Positions 55,566 through 62,721 of a DNA stretch of 64,000 nucleotides are shown one piece after another (the stretch's first letter is position 1; each line of letters starts with the position of its first letter). The stretch comes from a phage: the sequence record PZ445450.1; one strand, written 5' to 3'. The notes beneath the pieces were generated by a model, which saw only the letters and a list, made by a program, of their open reading frames with translations, was not told where the DNA came from and did not search any database. The translations under genes and the position numbers were made by a program.

Positions 55566-56045
55566 TTAATCCAGTACTGTGCCTCCGGCTTTTCGGAAGA
55601 CGTCCAGCATCTTCTCTATGTTTTCTACACGCTGATCATACAGTTTACCAGCCCCCGGTGGTGGTGGGAAACTTGCCCAACGGCTACGGCATTTATAGAT
55701 AGCTGAACGGATCCTTCCTTCATAAATGTCATCAAGGGCTTTACATTCGCGGATCAACTGTTTTGCTATGGCATCCTGACTTGCCGGACCAAAATCTCTT
55801 AAGCCAAGCTGCTTCATGTAATGCTTAGCGTATTTCTCCAGAATTTGGTATCTGCCAAATGCTGAAGAGGTAAGGCCTGGTCTTAATTTGACATAAATAC
55901 CGGGATGCCTGCTGAGATCCTCTATGTATTTTCCACCAACAAGGATGTGGTACGAAGCATCTTCGCCACCATACCTGTCAGTACCTTCTGAATGTGAAAT
56001 CATCGAAAAAAATGCTCTCAATTGTACATTTTTATCTAGCTTCAT
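55566..56045 (-). CDS. Endolysin, lambda R-like lytic transglycosylase
   Basis: Aligns along its length with lambda R (AFLDMLAWSEGTD..., GRYQ, FSPKSQD); ours AFFSMISHSEGTD...GRYQ...FGPASQD. Confidence 0.85.
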   Translation of the reverse strand: MKLDKNVQLRAFFSMISHSEGTDRYGGEDASYHILVGGKYIEDLSRHPGIYVKLRPGLTSSAFGRYQILEKYAKHYMKQLGLRDFGPASQDAIAKQLIRECKALDDIYEGRIRSAIYKCRSRWASFPPPPGAGKLYDQRVENIEKMLDVFRKAGGTVLD

Positions 56046-56911: not shown

Positions 56912-58195
56912 TCATTCCAGCACCTCCCAAGTGTCTGGGTCAACATTTCGGACGCAGATACCGACAGGGAATTGGTAGTTGTTGTCTTCTGTCCTTGATT
57001 GATATTTGAAGGTGACAAACTTGCCGATCATTTCCTGCATCCTGTCATAGCTACGCTCCTCGTGCGTGCCTTTCATCTTCATTTTAACAACTATACCTTC
57101 CTTGTCAACGCAGATAAGAACACCTTCATCATTCTTATCTTTCTCAACGTCAATAACTTTCACCTCAGCATCGTTGAACTTTTTCCATTTCAATGCTTCA
57201 GATGTTCGCTGACCATATTCATATTTACCACAGAAGTTACGCATGATAGTACCTTCATATCCTTCGGACATGAATACACCAACAGATTCTTCGCAATGAT
57301 CAACTGTGTACGCAAGCTCTGCGTCAACAACCTTGATATGGTCAAGCATCAGGGTGGTAATGGTATCTTCTGCATCCATAAGATCCTTGCATCGTCCAGA
57401 TTCTGTTTCCGGATCCCACCATACCTTGTCACTAGGAATGTCGAAAATATGATACTCTAAGTCATAGCTACAGTACCCTCCGTAACGCAAATCATCACGA
57501 ACAGGCTCAACATCAACAGGAATATCTACCTTATTGAAGTTTTTGTATGTTGATAAGCCTGCCTTAATTGCGGCATGACGGCGTTTTTTATCTGCCTCGT
57601 AGTCTTTATCGATCTCGGCCTGAATCTCTTCCTGTGTGCGCCAACGTTTAGCAAGAGACACTATTTTCTGCAGAGGCAGACCATGAATATAGATCTCTCC
57701 GTCGAGCTGTTTAATCCCGGTGGTGAAGTGGAAAGAACGAAGTTGCTCCAGAAGCTTTCCTTGAATAGGGTAGGACTTATTACCACGGGAAATAAATTTA
57801 GGCTCACCGTTTTGGAAAACAACCAGTAGACGAAGGCCATCTAACTTACGCAAGATCCAGCAGGGTAATTTAAGTGCCTTTCCACGCTTCAGGTAGTCAT
57901 GCACCAGCATGGGTAAAAGGTCAACACCCTGCTCGCAATCTTCCATATTTTCAACATACCCCAGACGGACTTGTTTTTCCCACTTACTGATCGCTTCCAG
58001 CTCAGCCTGTTGCTCAGCTGTAGTTTCATTGGCACGGCCCACGTTCTTAGGTGTGCAGATCGTCTCTTTGTATTGCAGTTTACCATCAAGCTTGCCAAAC
58101 TCTACGATAACCTTATCACCATCCGTGAATACTTTCCACTGTTGGTAGCTGCCATCTTTGTTCAGTGCGTACAGTGTTGTTTTGATCTGATGCAT
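56912..58195 (-). CDS. ATP-dependent DNA ligase
   Basis: Motif I LRKLDGLR (KxDG); motif III LDGEIYIHG; motif IV EGTIMR; motif V LKWKK. Confidence 0.8.
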   Translation of the reverse strand: MHQIKTTLYALNKDGSYQQWKVFTDGDKVIVEFGKLDGKLQYKETICTPKNVGRANETTAEQQAELEAISKWEKQVRLGYVENMEDCEQGVDLLPMLVHDYLKRGKALKLPCWILRKLDGLRLLVVFQNGEPKFISRGNKSYPIQGKLLEQLRSFHFTTGIKQLDGEIYIHGLPLQKIVSLAKRWRTQEEIQAEIDKDYEADKKRRHAAIKAGLSTYKNFNKVDIPVDVEPVRDDLRYGGYCSYDLEYHIFDIPSDKVWWDPETESGRCKDLMDAEDTITTLMLDHIKVVDAELAYTVDHCEESVGVFMSEGYEGTIMRNFCGKYEYGQRTSEALKWKKFNDAEVKVIDVEKDKNDEGVLICVDKEGIVVKMKMKGTHEERSYDRMQEMIGKFVTFKYQSRTEDNNYQFPVGICVRNVDPDTWEVLE

Positions 58196-58785: not shown

Positions 58786-58816
58786 CATAATAAGTAAAGC
58801 CGGGTAATCCCGGCTA
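58786..58816 (-). terminator. Rho-independent terminator
   Basis: agccgggattacccggct plus T-rich tail on the - strand. Confidence 0.55.
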
Positions 58817-58821
58817 TGTTG

Positions 58822-59535
58822 TTAAATATACTCTGTTACATCCTTGAAGCTCGAAGGCTTCATAATCTTACCTTTACTGTCAAGGAATATAATAACTTTA
58901 TTGCCGTTGTAGAACTCCTCTTTAGCAACGAAACCTTCGTAGCGACCACCAAAACGACGCTCAAGATCTTTAATCTCCAACTCGATGAGTTGTTCAGCAG
59001 GCATATCTGCACTGGCACCGTGTGAATGCCGTAGATGGTTGATCCGTGCAAACTTACTGTCATTAGATTTTAGAACCTTCCGCATCATCCCACACACATC
59101 CCCGCTAAGCTGGAACAGTAAAGCTGTTGATAACTCCGCTAGTCGGTAAGCTGACGCTCTTTGCTTGGATGTGTTTTTCGCAGCGATCAGTGTATCATAG
59201 AACTCACCGATCTTGAACTTAAGACCTCGCGGATTATCAAACAGGTTTGACCACTTTTCGTGGTTATCATTAACAAGATAAGCTGCATAACTTGTGACAA
59301 CGTGAAGATCGCAGGCCTCTTTTAGCAGGTGATCTCCACCATCACCTTTCTCCAGCTCTTCCAAAACCTCATTGAACTCTTCCTCAATGAAGCTAAGCTG
59401 TAATTCGAATGGTGTGTATGATTTTTTCACTTTAGCTGCCACACGGTTCCAGTTTTCCACCCAGTTGGCAGACCAAAGGTAGTTTTCAGGCTGGGACAGT
59501 TTTTCCAGGTTGTCGATCAGTTTAGTATTCAGCAT
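58822..59535 (-). CDS. MazG-like nucleotide pyrophosphohydrolase (putative)
   Basis: FIEEEFNEVLEELEKGD fits the E..E...E..D all-alpha NTP-PPase motif; remainder unassigned. Confidence 0.35.
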   Translation of the reverse strand: MLNTKLIDNLEKLSQPENYLWSANWVENWNRVAAKVKKSYTPFELQLSFIEEEFNEVLEELEKGDGGDHLLKEACDLHVVTSYAAYLVNDNHEKWSNLFDNPRGLKFKIGEFYDTLIAAKNTSKQRASAYRLAELSTALLFQLSGDVCGMMRKVLKSNDSKFARINHLRHSHGASADMPAEQLIELEIKDLERRFGGRYEGFVAKEEFYNGNKVIIFLDSKGKIMKPSSFKDVTEYI

Positions 59536-59548
59536 TAAAGGTCTCCTT

Positions 59549-60310
59549 TTAAAGTTCCATAAAGTTTTCTACAGTTTCAATAAATGCTTTATCAGAGAAA
59601 GCGTCAACAGCACCGTTAAACCATACAGGGATCCCGCGATCCTCATATTGATAAAGGTCGCTACGTGAAATGCCACTTCCATCTGCACTCTGCGAATCAT
59701 ACTTGTTTACAATCAGCAGTTTTGTGCCTTTACAAGTAGCAGGAAACAATTCCCAGTTAAAATTAATAACTGTGTTAGAACAACCTACCAGGATCACCAT
59801 ATCATTGCTTGTGAGAGATGTCAACAGGTCATACATGTCTGTATACTTAGGAGCAACCTCACCGAAGAACACTACATTGGGCTTAACCCAGGTATACTTG
59901 CCTGTATCTACCTCCGTGTATCCGATATTTTTAATTACATCATTACCTTCAGCATCTTCGTAGGTGATTTCAGGCAAATACCCGTGGACATGTAAAATAT
60001 CTTCATGTTTTACACCAGCACGCTCCAGCAAATCATCTACATTGGTAGTAAGGTTGATCACACGACCAGACCAGCGGGAATACCACTCAGCGATCCGAAG
60101 ATGTGCAAGGTTAGGATCAACACTGCCCAGAGCTACACGACGTGCATTGTAAAAGTCATGCACCTTATAGTAGTTCTTGGCAAAGGTGTGGATGTTGCAC
60201 ACCTCATCGATGCTGAAATTCTCCCACATTGCAGTGCTACCAGATCGGAAAGTGGGAATACCAGATTCAGCGCTCAAACCAGCACCGGAGATAATAATCA
60301 GTCGTCGCAT
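59549..60310 (-). CDS. Sir2 (sirtuin) family NAD-dependent enzyme
   Basis: GAGLSAESGIPTFR, TTNVDDLLERAG, HVHG, PNVVFFGE and VGCSNTV motifs; no CxxC...CxxC zinc module. Confidence 0.75.
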   Translation of the reverse strand: MRRLIIISGAGLSAESGIPTFRSGSTAMWENFSIDEVCNIHTFAKNYYKVHDFYNARRVALGSVDPNLAHLRIAEWYSRWSGRVINLTTNVDDLLERAGVKHEDILHVHGYLPEITYEDAEGNDVIKNIGYTEVDTGKYTWVKPNVVFFGEVAPKYTDMYDLLTSLTSNDMVILVGCSNTVINFNWELFPATCKGTKLLIVNKYDSQSADGSGISRSDLYQYEDRGIPVWFNGAVDAFSDKAFIETVENFMEL

Positions 60311-60318
60311 AAGTGTCC

Positions 60319-60699
60319 TCAGTAGATGTTTTGTTTAATCTCTATTCCAAACTTCTTGAATGAGTCAGCAGCAAGCATAAATTTACGAGCTGCCGATGGA
60401 TTAGAAGTATGCACGAAAATAATCACGTTGTCAATAAGTGGTGGCTTTCCGAATACAAGTTTCTCCTCTAGCGCAGAGAAGCAGTCGTACCCTTCAAGCA
60501 CTTCACCTAGATCATTGTCAAAATGCCACTCAGAAACGCTCCTGTAGAGCTTTCTATTATCGTTAATAAAATCCATGAACTCAGAAGAGTTCTTCAGCCA
60601 AAGAGCATCTTGGATTCCGTAATTTGACGGATCTCTCAAGTCATCTAGCCACACAATCAACTTCTTCATTGCATATAGTCCTCGTTGTGAAAATAGCAA
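60319..60699 (-). CDS. Hypothetical protein
   Basis: 126 aa ORF lying between the Sir2 and ligase-like genes. Confidence 0.45.
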   Translation of the reverse strand: MLFSQRGLYAMKKLIVWLDDLRDPSNYGIQDALWLKNSSEFMDFINDNRKLYRSVSEWHFDNDLGEVLEGYDCFSALEEKLVFGKPPLIDNVIIFVHTSNPSAARKFMLAADSFKKFGIEIKQNIY

Positions 60700-61583
60700 T
60701 CAAGTATCTCACGGCGTTCCTGCTCCAGGAGGCAGTTCCACACATCTTCTGTGTAATTGCTACGAATGAAGTTTACCATGCCATAAAACTCTTCGTCAAT
60801 ACGTTTAAAGATATCATCATCCCAAATCTTCCAAGCTTTACCCCTCATTACGGCCTTCCGTGCCAAATAGTATGGAGACTTGATCTTCAGCTGCAGGTCA
60901 TAAGGGTAGTAAGGCTTACGGATCATATACCCTTCGCCCCTTGTTTCTGCAGCTAATTCTTTTGCATAGCTGAACGGGATTTCACGCACAGTGTGAGGAC
61001 GTTTTGCACCAAGGTATTTGGCAATTCCATCTAAAGCTGCTTCTGGTAGCATTATTCCAGAATCATTATATCTGCAACCTATCAAATATGCGCCATGGTC
61101 TTCTTGAACAATATGCGGATCTGAAGGGTGACAAATTTCAAACATGAATGTCATGTTTTCATTGCCCATAACCTTCTTGATAAGATCTAAATTACCACAT
61201 TGCTCTTGGATGGTTTCCTTTGCAAGGTTACAATATGGAGAATCAAGAGACCCGGTTGTTGAGAACAATAGGTCACCTTTATGAGATGATACCACACCAA
61301 GGAATCCGTTCTTTTTCTCTACCGCAGTCACAAGCTTATTGTCAGGCAGGTTGGTGGAGTTTTCTCCCAAGTTAAACACTTTTGTGAAGGGCCATGCCAC
61401 AACATTTCCTTCATTACCTACAACAATGCCTCGGCACTCCAGTAAACGAGGGGACAAATGCCATAAATTGTTGTAAAATACTTTTCTAGCATATTTATAG
61501 ATCTTTAACCCGAGATCTGGGTAATACCTACTGGTTACAAGACCTTTGTCAACTAGGTCGTCTGCATTAAAATACTTCATCAT
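60666..61583 (-). CDS. RNA ligase-like nucleotidyltransferase (Rnl2-like motifs)
   Basis: Motif I VEKKNGF (KxNG), motif IV EGYMIRKPYYP, motif V LKIKSP, compared with T4 Rnl2 EKIHGTN / EGYVLKP / IKCKN; GAGGA RBS. Confidence 0.55.
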   Translation of the reverse strand: MMKYFNADDLVDKGLVTSRYYPDLGLKIYKYARKVFYNNLWHLSPRLLECRGIVVGNEGNVVAWPFTKVFNLGENSTNLPDNKLVTAVEKKNGFLGVVSSHKGDLLFSTTGSLDSPYCNLAKETIQEQCGNLDLIKKVMGNENMTFMFEICHPSDPHIVQEDHGAYLIGCRYNDSGIMLPEAALDGIAKYLGAKRPHTVREIPFSYAKELAAETRGEGYMIRKPYYPYDLQLKIKSPYYLARKAVMRGKAWKIWDDDIFKRIDEEFYGMVNFIRSNYTEDVWNCLLEQERREILDCYFHNEDYMQ

Positions 61584-61701
61584 ACGTTCCTCATTTGTCA
61601 TTTTGTCAGTCTATCCTGTCACACAAATAACCTAGTGTCAACACTTGAAATTAACAAAACAGTTAGATATACTATCGTTGAAATTAAAACGGAGGGTCAC
61701 T

Positions 61702-62112
61702 ATGTCTAAAATGCTATATATCGTGCGTGGTCTACCAGGGTCTGGCAAATCAACACTGGCAAATGCGCTATCTTTAGAGGGTCTGTATCCACATTTTGAG
61801 AAAGACATGTTCTGGTATGACGATGACGGCAATTACAACTGGGATGCAAGTAAAGTAACACTCGCAGCGAAATGGTGCAAAGATAACGTAGAAGATATGA
61901 TGCGTATGGGATACGACCGTATCGTGGTAAGTAATACGTTTACAAAAGAAAAACATGTGCAGGAATATGTTGACATGGCAATCAGTCATGGGTATAGTTA
62001 TACCGTGATCGTGGTTGAAAACCGCCACGGTAATAAAAGCATTCATGATGTTCCAGACAAGGTTGTGGATCGTATGGAACGCCAGCTTAAAAACTGCATT
62101 AAACTTAAATGA
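61702..62112 (+). CDS. Polynucleotide 5'-kinase (T4 Pnk kinase-domain-like)
   Basis: P-loop GLPGSGKST; VVSNTF matches Pnk IISDTNL; VPDKVVDRMERQL matches Pnk VPIDVLRSMYKSM; GGAGGG RBS. Confidence 0.7.
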   Translation: MSKMLYIVRGLPGSGKSTLANALSLEGLYPHFEKDMFWYDDDGNYNWDASKVTLAAKWCKDNVEDMMRMGYDRIVVSNTFTKEKHVQEYVDMAISHGYSYTVIVVENRHGNKSIHDVPDKVVDRMERQLKNCIKLK

Positions 62113-62119
62113 GGAATGT

Positions 62120-62674
62120 ATGAAATACTTTGTAACAAGCGACACACACTTTCTCCACCAGCGGGTCATGGAGTTTGATTCATGTCAAAAACACAGATCT
62201 CAGTATGATCACAATCTTGACAGTATGAATGCGGGAATCATCGCCGAATGGAACTCTGTTGTGTCACCTGCAGACACTGTGTTCCACTTGGGAGATATTG
62301 CGTGCACTAATGATAAGAATATCAACAACTTACTTCCAGATATTCTAAATATGTTGAACGGACATATTATTCTTGTTCGTGGCAACCATGACACAAGGAC
62401 GACTGTCAGAATTATGAAAGAGTTCGGTCATGAGGTTGTAGATTATTACGAGCTTCGCCACAACAAGAATTTGATCTGTATGAGCCATTACCAATTTGCA
62501 AAGTGGAACAGAAAGCCTCACGGATCAGTCCAACTGTTCGGTCATGCTCACGGAACCACACAACAGTTGTTTGGCAGGCAGCTTGATGTCGGTTGGGATG
62601 TGTGGGGGAGACTCTTACCATTAGAAGAGGCATACCGTATTGCAATGAGTTTTGCTATTGACAGCGGGGAGTAA
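62120..62674 (+). CDS. Calcineurin-like metallophosphoesterase
   Basis: VTSDTHF, HLGDI, RGNHD and GHAH motifs; GAGGAA RBS; start refined to ATG 62120. Confidence 0.75.
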   Translation: MKYFVTSDTHFLHQRVMEFDSCQKHRSQYDHNLDSMNAGIIAEWNSVVSPADTVFHLGDIACTNDKNINNLLPDILNMLNGHIILVRGNHDTRTTVRIMKEFGHEVVDYYELRHNKNLICMSHYQFAKWNRKPHGSVQLFGHAHGTTQQLFGRQLDVGWDVWGRLLPLEEAYRIAMSFAIDSGE

Positions 62675-62721
62675 TCCCTGCTATTTTAAAGAAAATTGCC
62701 ACACAAGGAGAATCAGGAGAT

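Follow-up and report, generated by a model that had tools for sequence, protein, structure and literature searches.

Gene content and predicted role of a candidate RNA end-healing and sealing cluster in an rV5-like phage

Organization of the locus

The window, a stretch of 64,000 nucleotides (record PZ445450.1), comes from a Vequintavirus (rV5-like), a phage of E. coli, with 99.8% identity to deposited genomes. The open reading frames of an RNA ligase, a kinase and a phosphoesterase were confirmed at the positions that the first-pass annotation had given them (Table 1), and existing GenBank records already name all three genes. Positions 58822–60669, which had gone undiscussed, hold three more genes co-operonic with that of the ligase, encoding a cREC (cyclic-phosphate-processing receiver-like) protein, a sirtuin and a MazG-like protein.

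Table 1. Genes and candidate transcription signals of the locus
Feature	Coordinates	Strand	Description
RNA ligase	60666..61583	-	compact Rnl1-family, ATP-dependent, 305–311 aa
Pnk-type kinase	61702..62112	+	stand-alone P-loop kinase, 136 aa
Metallophosphoesterase	62120..62674	+	calcineurin-type, AQ1575/aq_1665 clade, 184 aa
cREC protein	60319..60669	-	PF20274
Sirtuin (SIR2)	59549..60310	-	PF02146
MazG/PRA-PH-like protein	58822..59535	-	237 aa; last gene of the ligase operon
G+C-rich hairpin and T-rich tail	58798..58815	-	terminator scan and sequence reading; consensus match only
Sigma-70-like promoter match	61645..61673	+	TTGAAA-17-TATACT; consensus match only

The open frame of the ligase extends to 61601, and the ATG at 61583 is preceded by a ribosome-binding site (GAGGAA). 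As read from the sequence, the ligase stop codon overlaps the cREC start codon (ATGA). The two genes are predicted to be co-transcribed and translationally coupled, with the sirtuin gene and then the MazG-like gene downstream. The probable terminator of this operon is a hairpin (AGCCGGG-ATTA-CCCGGCT) with a T-rich tail behind it, located 7 nt past the MazG-like stop codon. The promoter match sits in the 118 bp between the divergent ligase and kinase genes and precedes the ribosome-binding site (GGAGGG) and ATG of the kinase; on the minus strand of this interval, no promoter match that could serve the ligase operon was detected.

The cREC protein matches PF20274 (E 6.4e-14), and D9, D10, R12, D51, D53, N90 and P91 are invariant among 10 homologues. 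The sirtuin matches PF02146 (E 6.9e-28) and phrog_2162 (E 1.5e-108). Its NAD+-binding and catalytic residues are intact (invariant GAG.S.ESG..FR, N90, D92 and H109-G110); it has no zinc-ribbon cysteines, the only invariant cysteines being C38 and C177. The MazG-like protein alone gave no Pfam match at E ≤ 0.01; 12 of 12 members of its family match PF01503 (PRA-PH) with a best E of 3.2e-7, and the protein itself matches phrog_671, "nucleotide pyrophosphohydrolase" (E 1.9e-21). The motifs EE..E...D..D and SNDSK are conserved. It is classed as an all-alpha protein with a MazG/PRA-PH-like nucleotide pyrophosphohydrolase domain.

Ligase, kinase and phosphoesterase

The family assignments of the three proteins lie well outside chance expectation. 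The ligase, initially described as Rnl2-like, belongs instead to the T4 Rnl1 family. It matches PF09511 (RNA_lig_T4_1) with an E of 1.1e-14 and 55.3 bits (cut-off 28.3) and phrog_562 (E 7e-66), with no Rnl2-family Pfam match listed at E ≤ 0.01. Profile comparison with T4 RnlA by hhalign gave a probability of 97.5% and an E of 5e-12 over T4 residues 33–248. With the AF2 model (pLDDT 91), the top Foldseek match was T4 Rnl1 (E 5.5e-12, TM 0.65), the values for T4 Rnl2 being E about 6e-6 and TM 0.39. Residues R57, K74, F76, K96, G99, E155, E223, G224, K239 and K241 are invariant among 30 homologues, Lys96 being the predicted nucleophile. The C-terminal helical region is short: the nucleotidyltransferase domain is followed by only about 65 residues, in place of the C-terminal domain of T4 Rnl1. 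That T4 domain is the source of tRNA specificity, and since the phage ligase lacks it, the target RNA may differ from that of T4. The score against TIGR02308 was 38.7 bits, for an equivalog cut-off of 242 bits. GenBank labels the protein "RNA ligase and tail fiber attachment catalyst".

The kinase matches PF13671 (AAA_33, E 5.4e-11) and was said to follow T4 Pnk motif by motif. Plain BLASTP between the two recovered the P-loop alone. By hhalign, the kinase profile aligned with T4 PseT residues 2–141 (probability 96.3%, E 2e-9), the P-loop, D35 and the lid arginine R108 coinciding with the T4 P-loop, D35 and R122. The correspondence fails at T4 Arg38, a residue that contacts the polynucleotide: the kinase has Trp38, and most homologues have an aromatic residue there. 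The lack of an Arg38 equivalent counts against a role in RNA repair. The best Foldseek matches were T4 Pnk (1ly1, E 2.4e-6, TM 0.72) and Clostridium thermocellum Pnk (TM 0.73–0.77), with mammalian PNKP and Pnkp1 also retrieved. The PDB profile search returned Pnkp1, PSTK and T4 Pnk, headed by "Rhizopus azygosporus Kinase" (9d8a) and a Lichtheimia corymbifera kinase (9drz), which are most likely the Mucorales RNA 5′-OH kinases of PMC11571804. Nicotinamide riboside kinase and other small-molecule kinases were among the weak matches. The protein is predicted, from profiles and model, to be a minimal Pnk-type polynucleotide 5′-OH kinase.

The phosphoesterase was correctly recognized as calcineurin-type: all five motifs are present, PF12850 and PF00149 both match over the cut-off, and phrog_547 is matched with an E of 1.3e-51. 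Residues H10, G58, D59, G88, N89, H90, H123, G141, H142 and H144 are invariant, and D8 is nearly so. In the profile search against the PDB, aq_1665 (1xm7) was matched with an E of 5.4e-23, and no structure of lambda-phosphatase or of a Pnkp phosphatase was found at E ≤ 1. Membership of the lambda-phosphatase/bacterial Pnkp clade was rejected, the protein being placed with the AQ1575/aq_1665 clade; the solved structures matched there include no characterized member, which weakens the case for RNA repair. Removal of a 2′,3′-cyclic or 3′-phosphate is the predicted activity.

Linkage across viral loci and alternative readings

The survey of conservation covered 80 viral loci, collected by their ligase alone, which form 41 ligase clusters at 70% identity; the loci being related and not phylogenetically independent, their raw counts overstate the statistical weight. 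Of these loci, 75 have the kinase gene, 74 of them on the strand of the ligase gene and 69 at most 1 kb away from it; 62 have the phosphoesterase gene, 52 of them at most 1 kb from the ligase gene. The three genes occur together within 2 kb at 53 of the 80 loci, representing 28 of the 41 clusters. The gene order varies (phosphoesterase-ligase-kinase, kinase-ligase-phosphoesterase) and flanking genes differ; annotations of two unrelated phages, Pseudomonas PAK_P4 and Vibrio Achelous, also list the three together. Kinase and ligase are fused in one open reading frame at 13 loci. One such protein (L048), of 432 aa, has AAA_33 at 15–117 and RNA_lig_T4_1 at 183–366, and PHROG 8238, a kinase-ligase fusion profile, is matched by both proteins of the window. 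Genes for the sirtuin, cREC and MazG-like proteins occur in 11–13 loci, the sirtuin in 4 and cREC in 6 of the 41 clusters. The kinase and phosphoesterase thus belong to a general core, and these three genes are lineage-specific additions. At another locus (L077), a "Swiss-army-knife" RNA-repair HAD phosphatase is encoded between ligase and phosphoesterase.

A healing-and-sealing role common to ligase, kinase and phosphoesterase is well supported by comparative genomics. Joint action on RNA, the central idea of the first-pass annotation, is strongly favoured by the tight linkage and kinase-ligase fusions conserved across diverse phage contigs, and also by the structural matches to validated RNA-repair enzymes. 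What the analysis shows directly is family membership, catalytic residues, predicted folds, the layout of the operon, conserved linkage and gene fusions. We infer each enzymatic activity, RNA and not DNA as the substrate, and a purpose in counter-defence, this last in agreement with the first-pass annotation, which also gave it as inference. An independent prediction also counts in favour of RNA repair: Iyer, Burroughs, Anantharaman and Aravind (2022, Viruses 14:1977, PMC9503650, section 3.7.3) described this neighbourhood, with phage V5 among its prototypes, and put forward an NAD+-dependent system of RNA repair. The locus probably represents, in its rV5-type form, a module for healing and sealing RNA ends that is widespread among phages.

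It is very unlikely that the kinase and phosphoesterase serve DNA, cleaning 5′-OH/3′-phosphate ends for a DNA ligase in replication, recombination or nuclease-damage repair, on the model of mammalian PNKP, with the Rnl1-like enzyme incidental. A DNA ligase gene (56912–58195) does follow the operon at a distance of 0.6 kb, the kinase model matches mammalian PNKP among other structures, and T4 Pnkp works on DNA as well as RNA. An ATP-dependent DNA ligase is found within 10 kb of the RNA ligase in 43 of the 80 loci, but within 1 kb in only 4, compared with 69 for the kinase. All 13 kinase fusions are with an Rnl1-type ligase and never with a DNA ligase; in the window, the terminator-like hairpin and two small open reading frames separate the operon from the DNA ligase gene. 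The same chemistry might instead be applied to RNA without any part in host immunity, by maturing or recycling phage or host RNAs (phage tRNA precursors, RNAs cut by phage-encoded nucleases) or by circularizing RNAs. The predicted enzymology is neutral as to the origin of the breaks, tRNA genes are clustered about 3 kb downstream in close relatives, and archaeal Rnl3 relatives circularize small RNAs (PMC9014305). Against this stands the pattern of an anti-defence island at many loci, where the module adjoins Prs-like and NAMPT-like genes. Judged by homology, these genes would serve to salvage or reconstitute NAD+, which is a recognized theme in the way phages counter defences. The pair formed by T4 Rnl1 and Pnkp, to our knowledge the only phage pair of this kind understood experimentally, counters the PrrC anticodon nuclease, and with this precedent a purely internal use appears unlikely.

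The cluster could also be one of nucleotide or NAD+/ADP-ribose metabolism. On this view, the substrates of the P-loop kinase would be nucleosides or nucleotides; immune signals in the form of soluble nucleotides or ADP-ribose would be broken down or altered by the phosphoesterase and by the cREC, sirtuin and MazG-like proteins; and the Rnl1 homologue would be mainly a tail-fibre attachment factor, like T4 gp63. The co-operonic sirtuin, cREC and MazG-like genes agree with this, as do the Prs-like and NAMPT-like genes within 10 kb (33 and 43 of 80 loci), the small-molecule kinases among the weak matches and the tail-fibre wording of the GenBank ligase name. The proposal is nevertheless highly improbable. 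The kinase has its best matches, by profile and by structure, among polynucleotide or tRNA kinases and not among nucleoside kinases, and no catalytic residue of the ligase varies among the homologues, an argument that ligase chemistry is under selection. A kinase-ligase fusion makes sense only if the product of the kinase is the substrate of the ligase, and it is the core three genes that are general, not the sirtuin and cREC.

Proposed reaction and relation to known systems

Following the RNA-repair reading, cut tRNA is most likely mended by the proteins of the cluster. The 3′-end phosphate would be opened and removed by the metallophosphoesterase, possibly with the help of cREC, and the 5′-OH would then be phosphorylated by the kinase. 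The ligase would adenylylate itself on Lys96, transfer AMP to the 5′-phosphate and seal the break. The sirtuin, cREC and MazG-like genes may add NAD+-dependent clean-up, as proposed in PMC9503650, by removing a residual 2′-phosphate or processing ADP-ribose by-products.

The predicted order of reactions is identical to that of T4, whose ligase is also of the Rnl1 family, with identical catalytic residues, and whose Pnk-type kinase likewise carries the P-loop, Asp35 and the lid arginine. In T4, Rnl1 (gene 63/rnlA) and Pnkp (pseT) reverse the cleavage of tRNA-Lys by PrrC, and the two genes are not adjacent. As first noted, the phage kinase stands alone without the fused HAD phosphatase of T4, 3′-end healing being left to a binuclear metallophosphoesterase with its own open reading frame.

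Bacterial Pnkp (Clostridium thermocellum Pnkp/Hen1, Capnocytophaga Pnkp1-Rnl-Hen1) has three chemistries in common with the phage, namely those of a P-loop 5′-kinase, a metallophosphoesterase and an adenylyltransferase/ligase, and the Clostridium and Pnkp1 kinase domains can be superposed on the kinase model. The notion of a bacterial Pnkp split into separate genes holds for domain chemistry. It does not hold further: one polypeptide corresponds to three genes, the phosphoesterase clade differs, the ligase is Rnl1-type, and no Hen1 methyltransferase is annotated near the phage cluster.

The ligase domain of fungal and plant Trl1 is as close structurally to the phage ligase as T4 Rnl1 (E about 1e-11). 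In Mucorales, the tRNA-splicing enzymes are split into a stand-alone ligase, a stand-alone RNA 5′-OH kinase and Tpt1, the kinases most likely being the top profile matches reported above. The link of an NAD+-using enzyme to the phage ligase parallels the functional tie between Tpt1 and Trl1. Unlike the Trl1 pathway, the phage cluster has neither 2H cyclic phosphodiesterase nor Tpt1/KptA, and its NAD+ enzyme is a sirtuin of hypothesized role.

The closest system is the sirtuin-centred type 2 of "NAD+-utilising RNA repair" (PMC9503650), with Escherichia phage V5 and Proteus phage Mydo as prototypes. Its gene content is that of the window: sirtuin, T4-like tRNA ligase, cREC, nucleotide kinase, MazG-superfamily pyrophosphatase and calcineurin-like phosphoesterase. 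The locus is this type 2 system, and nothing substantive differs. A search of the available papers found no biochemical or genetic study of any protein of the cluster, which is genuine, conserved and coherent and, as a prediction, already known, annotated and published. The phosphoesterase, termed "occasional" in the sirtuin-centred account, is found in 62 of 80 loci when the survey is centred on the ligase.

Organisation of the locus

The ORFs of the ligase, kinase and phosphoesterase were found where the first-pass annotation had placed them. Its description of an island of three adjacent genes overlooked half of an operon, as genes for a cREC domain protein, a sirtuin and a MazG-like protein also lie on the ligase strand. 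On the minus strand, the start codon of the cREC gene overlaps the stop codon of the ligase gene (ATGA), the cREC and sirtuin genes are 8 nt apart, with a GAGGA that spans the cREC stop codon, and 13 nt separate the sirtuin and MazG-like genes. On the plus strand, the kinase gene is preceded by a GGAGGG ribosome-binding site and is followed by the phosphoesterase gene after 7 nt. Given this spacing, together with a promoter-like match and a terminator-like hairpin, the locus consists of two divergent transcription units rather than three loose genes. When the divergent intergenic region was scanned for promoters, nothing resembling a sigma-70 site turned up for the minus-strand operon.

Features of the locus and its surroundings
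Feature	Coordinates	Strand	Evidence or remark
Endolysin	55566-56045
HNH_3 ORF, 238 aa	56042-56758	-	HNH_3, E = 6.6e-6
ATP-dependent DNA ligase	56912-58195
Small ORF, 89 aa	58195-58464	-	PHROG 14585
Small ORF, 102 aa	58451-58759	-	PHROG 7684
G+C-rich hairpin with T-rich tail, terminator-like	58798-58815	-	After the MazG-like stop codon
MazG-like protein, 237 aa	58822-59535	-	Family-level PRA-PH matches
Sirtuin	59549-60310	-	PF02146, E = 6.9e-28
cREC domain protein	60319-60669	-	PF20274, E = 6.4e-14
Ligase	60666-61583/61601	-	RNA_lig_T4_1 (PF09511), E = 1.1e-14
Divergent intergenic region	61584-61701
Sigma-70-like match	61645-61673	+	5' of the kinase gene
Kinase	61702-62112	+	AAA_33, E = 5.4e-11
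Phosphoesterase	62120-62674	+	Metallophos_2 and Metallophos, each above cut-off
HTH_36/DUF6945 protein, 116 aa	62722-63072	+	Next gene after the phosphoesterase

Over 58800-62700, the sequence shares 99.8% identity with the Escherichia phages A6-1 and MaxTheCat (Bas57, Vequintavirus, rV5-like), and 121 phage records match it at an identity of at least 80%. In the records of relatives, the genes bear the names 'RNA ligase', 'polynucleotide kinase' (or 'ATPase'), 'putative phosphoesterase' and 'sirtuin domain NAD-dependent deacetylase'; 'nucleotide pyrophosphohydrolase' appears in one matching record. An ARAGORN scan for tRNA genes was negative throughout the window, and the tRNA cluster of relatives is situated past its end.

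The three core enzymes

Profiles and structure prediction were needed because single-sequence phmmer searches of the ligase and the kinase against PDB sequences returned noise only. The ligase scored 55.3 bits against PF09511 (cut-off 28.3) and is 26% identical to T4 RnlA (Rnl1) by BLASTP (E = 2e-9). A 30-sequence profile was aligned by hhalign to residues 33-248 of RnlA with a probability of 97.5% (E = 5e-12), which placed the ligase segments ECRGI, PFTKVFN, EKKNGF, FEI, GEGY and LKIKS opposite their T4 equivalents. Residues R54, K75, F77, K99, G102, E159, E227, G228, K240 and K242 are essential in T4 Rnl1. Their counterparts in the ligase (R57, K74, F76, K96, G99, E155, E223, G224, K239 and K241, respectively) are all invariant among 30 homologues. 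Nucleotidyltransferase motifs I, III, IV and V are present, as are upstream elements specific to Rnl1. The AlphaFold model (pLDDT 91) was best matched by T4 Rnl1 in Foldseek (E = 5.5e-12, TM 0.65) and was equally close to archaeal Rnl3 and fungal Trl1 ligase domains, with T4 Rnl2 far behind (E ≈ 6e-6, TM 0.39). No match to the Rnl2-family Pfam entry (PF09414) was listed at E ≤ 0.01. The ligase is thus of the Rnl1 type, and not Rnl2-like as had been proposed.

The hhalign match ends at T4 residue 248, and no T4-type C-terminal helical domain (residues ~255-374), which is implicated in the tRNA specificity of T4 Rnl1, was found in the ligase. The protein is compact, with only about 65 residues past motif V, and its score against the NCBIfam equivalog TIGR02308 (38.7 bits) is far under the cut-off of 242. 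Its C-terminal part contains basic residues that are invariant (K249, R253, R296) or nearly so (K248, K258, R297).

The kinase is a member of a very abundant protein family, free-standing and roughly 130 aa long, for which at least 7,990 matches were obtained. BLASTP against T4 PseT (Pnkp) found the P-loop alone. When the family profile was aligned to residues 2-141 of T4 Pnk by hhalign (probability 96.3%, E = 2e-9), GLPGSGKST was placed opposite GCPGSGKST of T4, D35 opposite the general base D35, and R108 opposite the lid residue R122. Residues R9, G10, G15, K16, T18, D35, R108, H109 and H115 are invariant. The motif-by-motif resemblance to T4 Pnk that had been claimed holds for the P-loop (GxxGxGKS/T), Asp35 and the lid arginine, within an adenylate-kinase-like fold. 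It fails at Arg38, the T4 residue in contact with the polynucleotide substrate, which is replaced by W38, a position that is aromatic in most homologues. The fused C-terminal HAD 3'-phosphatase of T4 is absent, as the kinase ends at residue 136 and covers T4 residues 2-141. Matches of the profile in the PDB were enriched in polynucleotide and tRNA kinases, including Pnkp1, PSTK, T4 Pnk, Clostridium thermocellum Pnk and the two Mucorales entries 9d8a and 9drz, which are probably the RNA 5'-OH kinases of PMC11571804. The best Foldseek matches of the model (pLDDT 82.7) were T4 Pnk (1ly1, top hit, TM 0.72) and CthPnk (TM up to 0.77). By sequence and predicted structure, the protein is a minimal Pnk-type kinase and a predicted polynucleotide 5'-OH kinase.

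The phosphoesterase is of the calcineurin type, as first annotated. It scored 29 bits against PF12850 (cut-off 27) and 27.9 bits against PF00149 (cut-off 21.5), and all five metal-binding motifs (DxH, GD, GNH[DE], H, GHxH) are present, as SDTHF, LGDI, GNHD, SHY and GHAHG. Residues H10, G58-D59, G88-N89-H90, H123 and G141-H142-x-H144 are invariant, and D8 nearly so. In the PDB, the family profile matched the structure of the uncharacterised Aquifex protein aq_1665 (E = 5.4e-23) and, weakly, GpdQ, MJ0936 and YfcE; no lambda-phosphatase or Pnkp phosphatase chain was found at E ≤ 1. The homologue in Pseudomonas phage PAK_P4 is assigned to MPP_AQ1575 in a GenBank CDD note. The notion of a bacterial Pnkp split into separate genes is consequently retained for the chemistry and rejected for the ancestry, since the phosphoesterase clade differs. 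Bacterial Pnkp is moreover a single polypeptide, whereas the window has three separate genes on two strands. The annotation of the phage with 99.8% identity shows no methyltransferase within 6 kb that could correspond to the Hen1 partner of bacterial Pnkp.

Linkage and predicted chemistry of the module

Eighty viral loci were retrieved with the ligase only, and their ORFs were searched by iterated HMMs seeded from the window proteins. Of these loci, 75 contain the kinase; its gene shares the ligase strand in 74 of them, lies no more than 1 kb away in 69 and forms one ORF with the ligase in 13. A phosphoesterase is encoded in 62 loci, at 1 kb or less from the ligase in 52. All three genes lie within 2 kb in 53 of the 80 loci, which represent 28 of the 41 ligase clusters (70% identity). 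Both collinear orders were seen, with varying flanking genes. One kinase-ligase fusion (locus L048, 432 aa) has AAA_33 at residues 15-117 and RNA_lig_T4_1 at residues 183-366, and PHROG 8238 is a profile of such fusions. A 'Swiss-army-knife' RNA-repair HAD phosphatase is encoded between ligase and phosphoesterase in one locus. The annotated trio also occurs in PAK_P4 (Pakpunavirus) and in Vibrio phage Achelous (Demerecviridae). Among about 50,700 phage records, 758 encode the compact ligase. It is known from Vequintavirinae, Pakpunavirus, Thalassavirus and many uncultured phages, as a rule accompanied by the kinase and the phosphoesterase. It is in the rV5-like locus alone that these two are opposite to the ligase strand; its divergent layout is therefore a locally inverted form of the common collinear module. 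The proposal that the three genes form a joint healing-and-sealing set is well supported as a prediction by comparative genomics, through this linkage and the 13 loci with a single ORF.

The cREC protein scored 52.8 bits against PF20274 (cut-off 27). It has a receiver-like fold, an acidic pocket with invariant D9, D10, D51 and D53, and linkage to RNA-ligase and NAD+ genes, with no histidine-kinase link. The MazG-like protein alone had no Pfam match at E ≤ 0.01; at the family level, 12 of 12 members matched PRA-PH (best E = 3.2e-7), which belongs to the MazG-like all-alpha pyrophosphohydrolase superfamily. The sirtuin keeps the NAD+-binding GAGxSxESGxxxFR, the Asn and Asp of TTNVD and the catalytic His-Gly. 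It contains no CxxC zinc-ribbon cysteines, and across eight homologues only two cysteines never vary. Such a pattern is uncommon in CobB-like sirtuins and agrees with the 'distinct clade' of Iyer et al. 2022 (PMC9503650). The cREC, sirtuin and MazG-like genes were found in 13, 11 and 13 of the 80 loci, respectively, most of them Vequintavirinae-related contigs about 145 kb long. Seen from the ligase, the general core is made up of kinase and phosphoesterase, to which these three genes are lineage-specific additions.

Such modules are said to have been described earliest, in all likelihood, by Burroughs and Aravind in 2016. The definition of the cREC domain rested on its association with RNA ligases and NAD+-processing enzymes, and the domain was predicted to open cyclic phosphates (Iyer et al. 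2021, PMC7824862). The sirtuin was later proposed to strip 2'-phosphates like KptA/Tpt1, and a neighbourhood type 2 was delineated with sirtuin, T4-like ligase, cREC, kinase, MazG-like pyrophosphatase and, in some cases, calcineurin-like phosphoesterase (Iyer et al. 2022, PMC9503650). All six components were found within 58822-62674. As a search of one literature collection found no experiments on RNA repair in Vequintavirinae, on phage sirtuins or on cREC, the system is known as a computational prediction, already annotated and published, to which its finding by genome scan adds little new. The survey refines that prediction by telling the general core apart from the lineage-specific additions.

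Enzymatic activities, an RNA substrate and a counter-defence role are inferred here. The most economical reading of the core genes is T4/Pnkp-like chemistry, in which a 2',3'-cyclic phosphate would be taken off the RNA end, the 5'-OH would be phosphorylated, and adenylylation would precede sealing. It requires no NAD+ step, and the sirtuin is missing from most loci. The module could instead serve DNA end repair, housekeeping RNA processing, or nucleotide or ADP-ribose metabolism with the ligase acting as a tail-fibre assembly factor. The kinase-ligase fusions, the invariant active site of the ligase and the polynucleotide-kinase affinities of the kinase make these explanations less likely.

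A variant specific to rV5-type phages draws on a difference between ligases: T4 Rnl1 does not seal 2'-phosphate ends and Trl1 needs them, a specificity due to the C-domain arginines R334 and R337 of Trl1 (PMC12440814). The rV5-type ligase would then seal 2'-phosphate ends like Trl1. Acting in the manner of Tpt1/KptA but without homology to it, the zinc-less sirtuin from the same operon would use NAD+ to strip the 2'-phosphate from the junction, and the resulting ADP-ribose cyclic phosphate would be handled by the cREC and MazG-like proteins. Basic residues conserved in the C-terminal part of the ligase family make this mode conceivable; with gene context as its basis, it is considered improbable. 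A demonstrated role of the sirtuin and a link of NAD+ supply to RNA repair would be new, the sirtuin hypothesis itself being that of Iyer et al. 2022.

A ribose-phosphate-pyrophosphokinase (Prs)-like gene adjoins the module in 33 of the 80 loci and a nicotinamide-phosphoribosyltransferase (NAMPT)-like gene in 43, both together in 32. Examples from unrelated phages are found in PAK_P4 (contig L089, 4322-6867), Achelous (contig L090, 6322-6900) and locus L005 (5799-9435). Judged by homology, the two genes look like a phage pair for NAD+ salvage or reconstitution, and their adjacency suggests either an anti-defence island or RNA repair that depends on NAD+. Were the sirtuin to act after a Trl1-like ligation, this adjacency would mean that phage RNA repair truly depends on NAD+ supply. 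Prs-like, NAMPT-like and Swiss-army-knife HAD genes, common beside the module elsewhere, are absent from the window.

The module is far more widespread than the T4 pair. Defences that cleave tRNA (PrrC, RloC, PARIS, some retrons, Cas13, OLD) are a major arm of bacterial immunity, and we know of no phage other than T4 in which RNA repair has been worked out. Because of this wide spread, characterisation would bear on a large share of therapeutic-type phages, including rV5-like and PAK_P-like ones, and would explain their escape from tRNA-targeting defences. It would also give a function to the AQ1575 phosphoesterase clade, the 130-aa mini-Pnk family and the cREC domain.

Genes beside the module

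A conserved 138-aa ORF lies between ligase and kinase in a cluster of seven loci (L018, 10876-11292; L024, 10918-11334). It had no Pfam match when checked for cREC and other known domains. It may be an unrecognised module component, since cREC holds the same position in Vequintavirinae-like contigs.

The HTH_36/DUF6945 gene of the window is annotated differently in two relatives, as 'transcriptional regulator' and as 'replication initiation protein', and is probably outside the repair module. The two small ORFs sit between the terminator-like hairpin and the DNA ligase gene. Homologues of the 102-aa protein are encoded immediately upstream of the phosphoesterase in three related contigs (L010, L013, L015); this protein therefore travels with the module. 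The HNH_3 ORF, between the endolysin and DNA ligase genes, gives the impression of a homing-endonuclease gene inserted in this phage only, as the corresponding gap in MaxTheCat is only about 125 bp. The cumulative GC skew of the window goes up to about 28 kb, then down to about 62 kb, in agreement with the switch of coding strand, and the divergent intergenic region falls at its second turning point.
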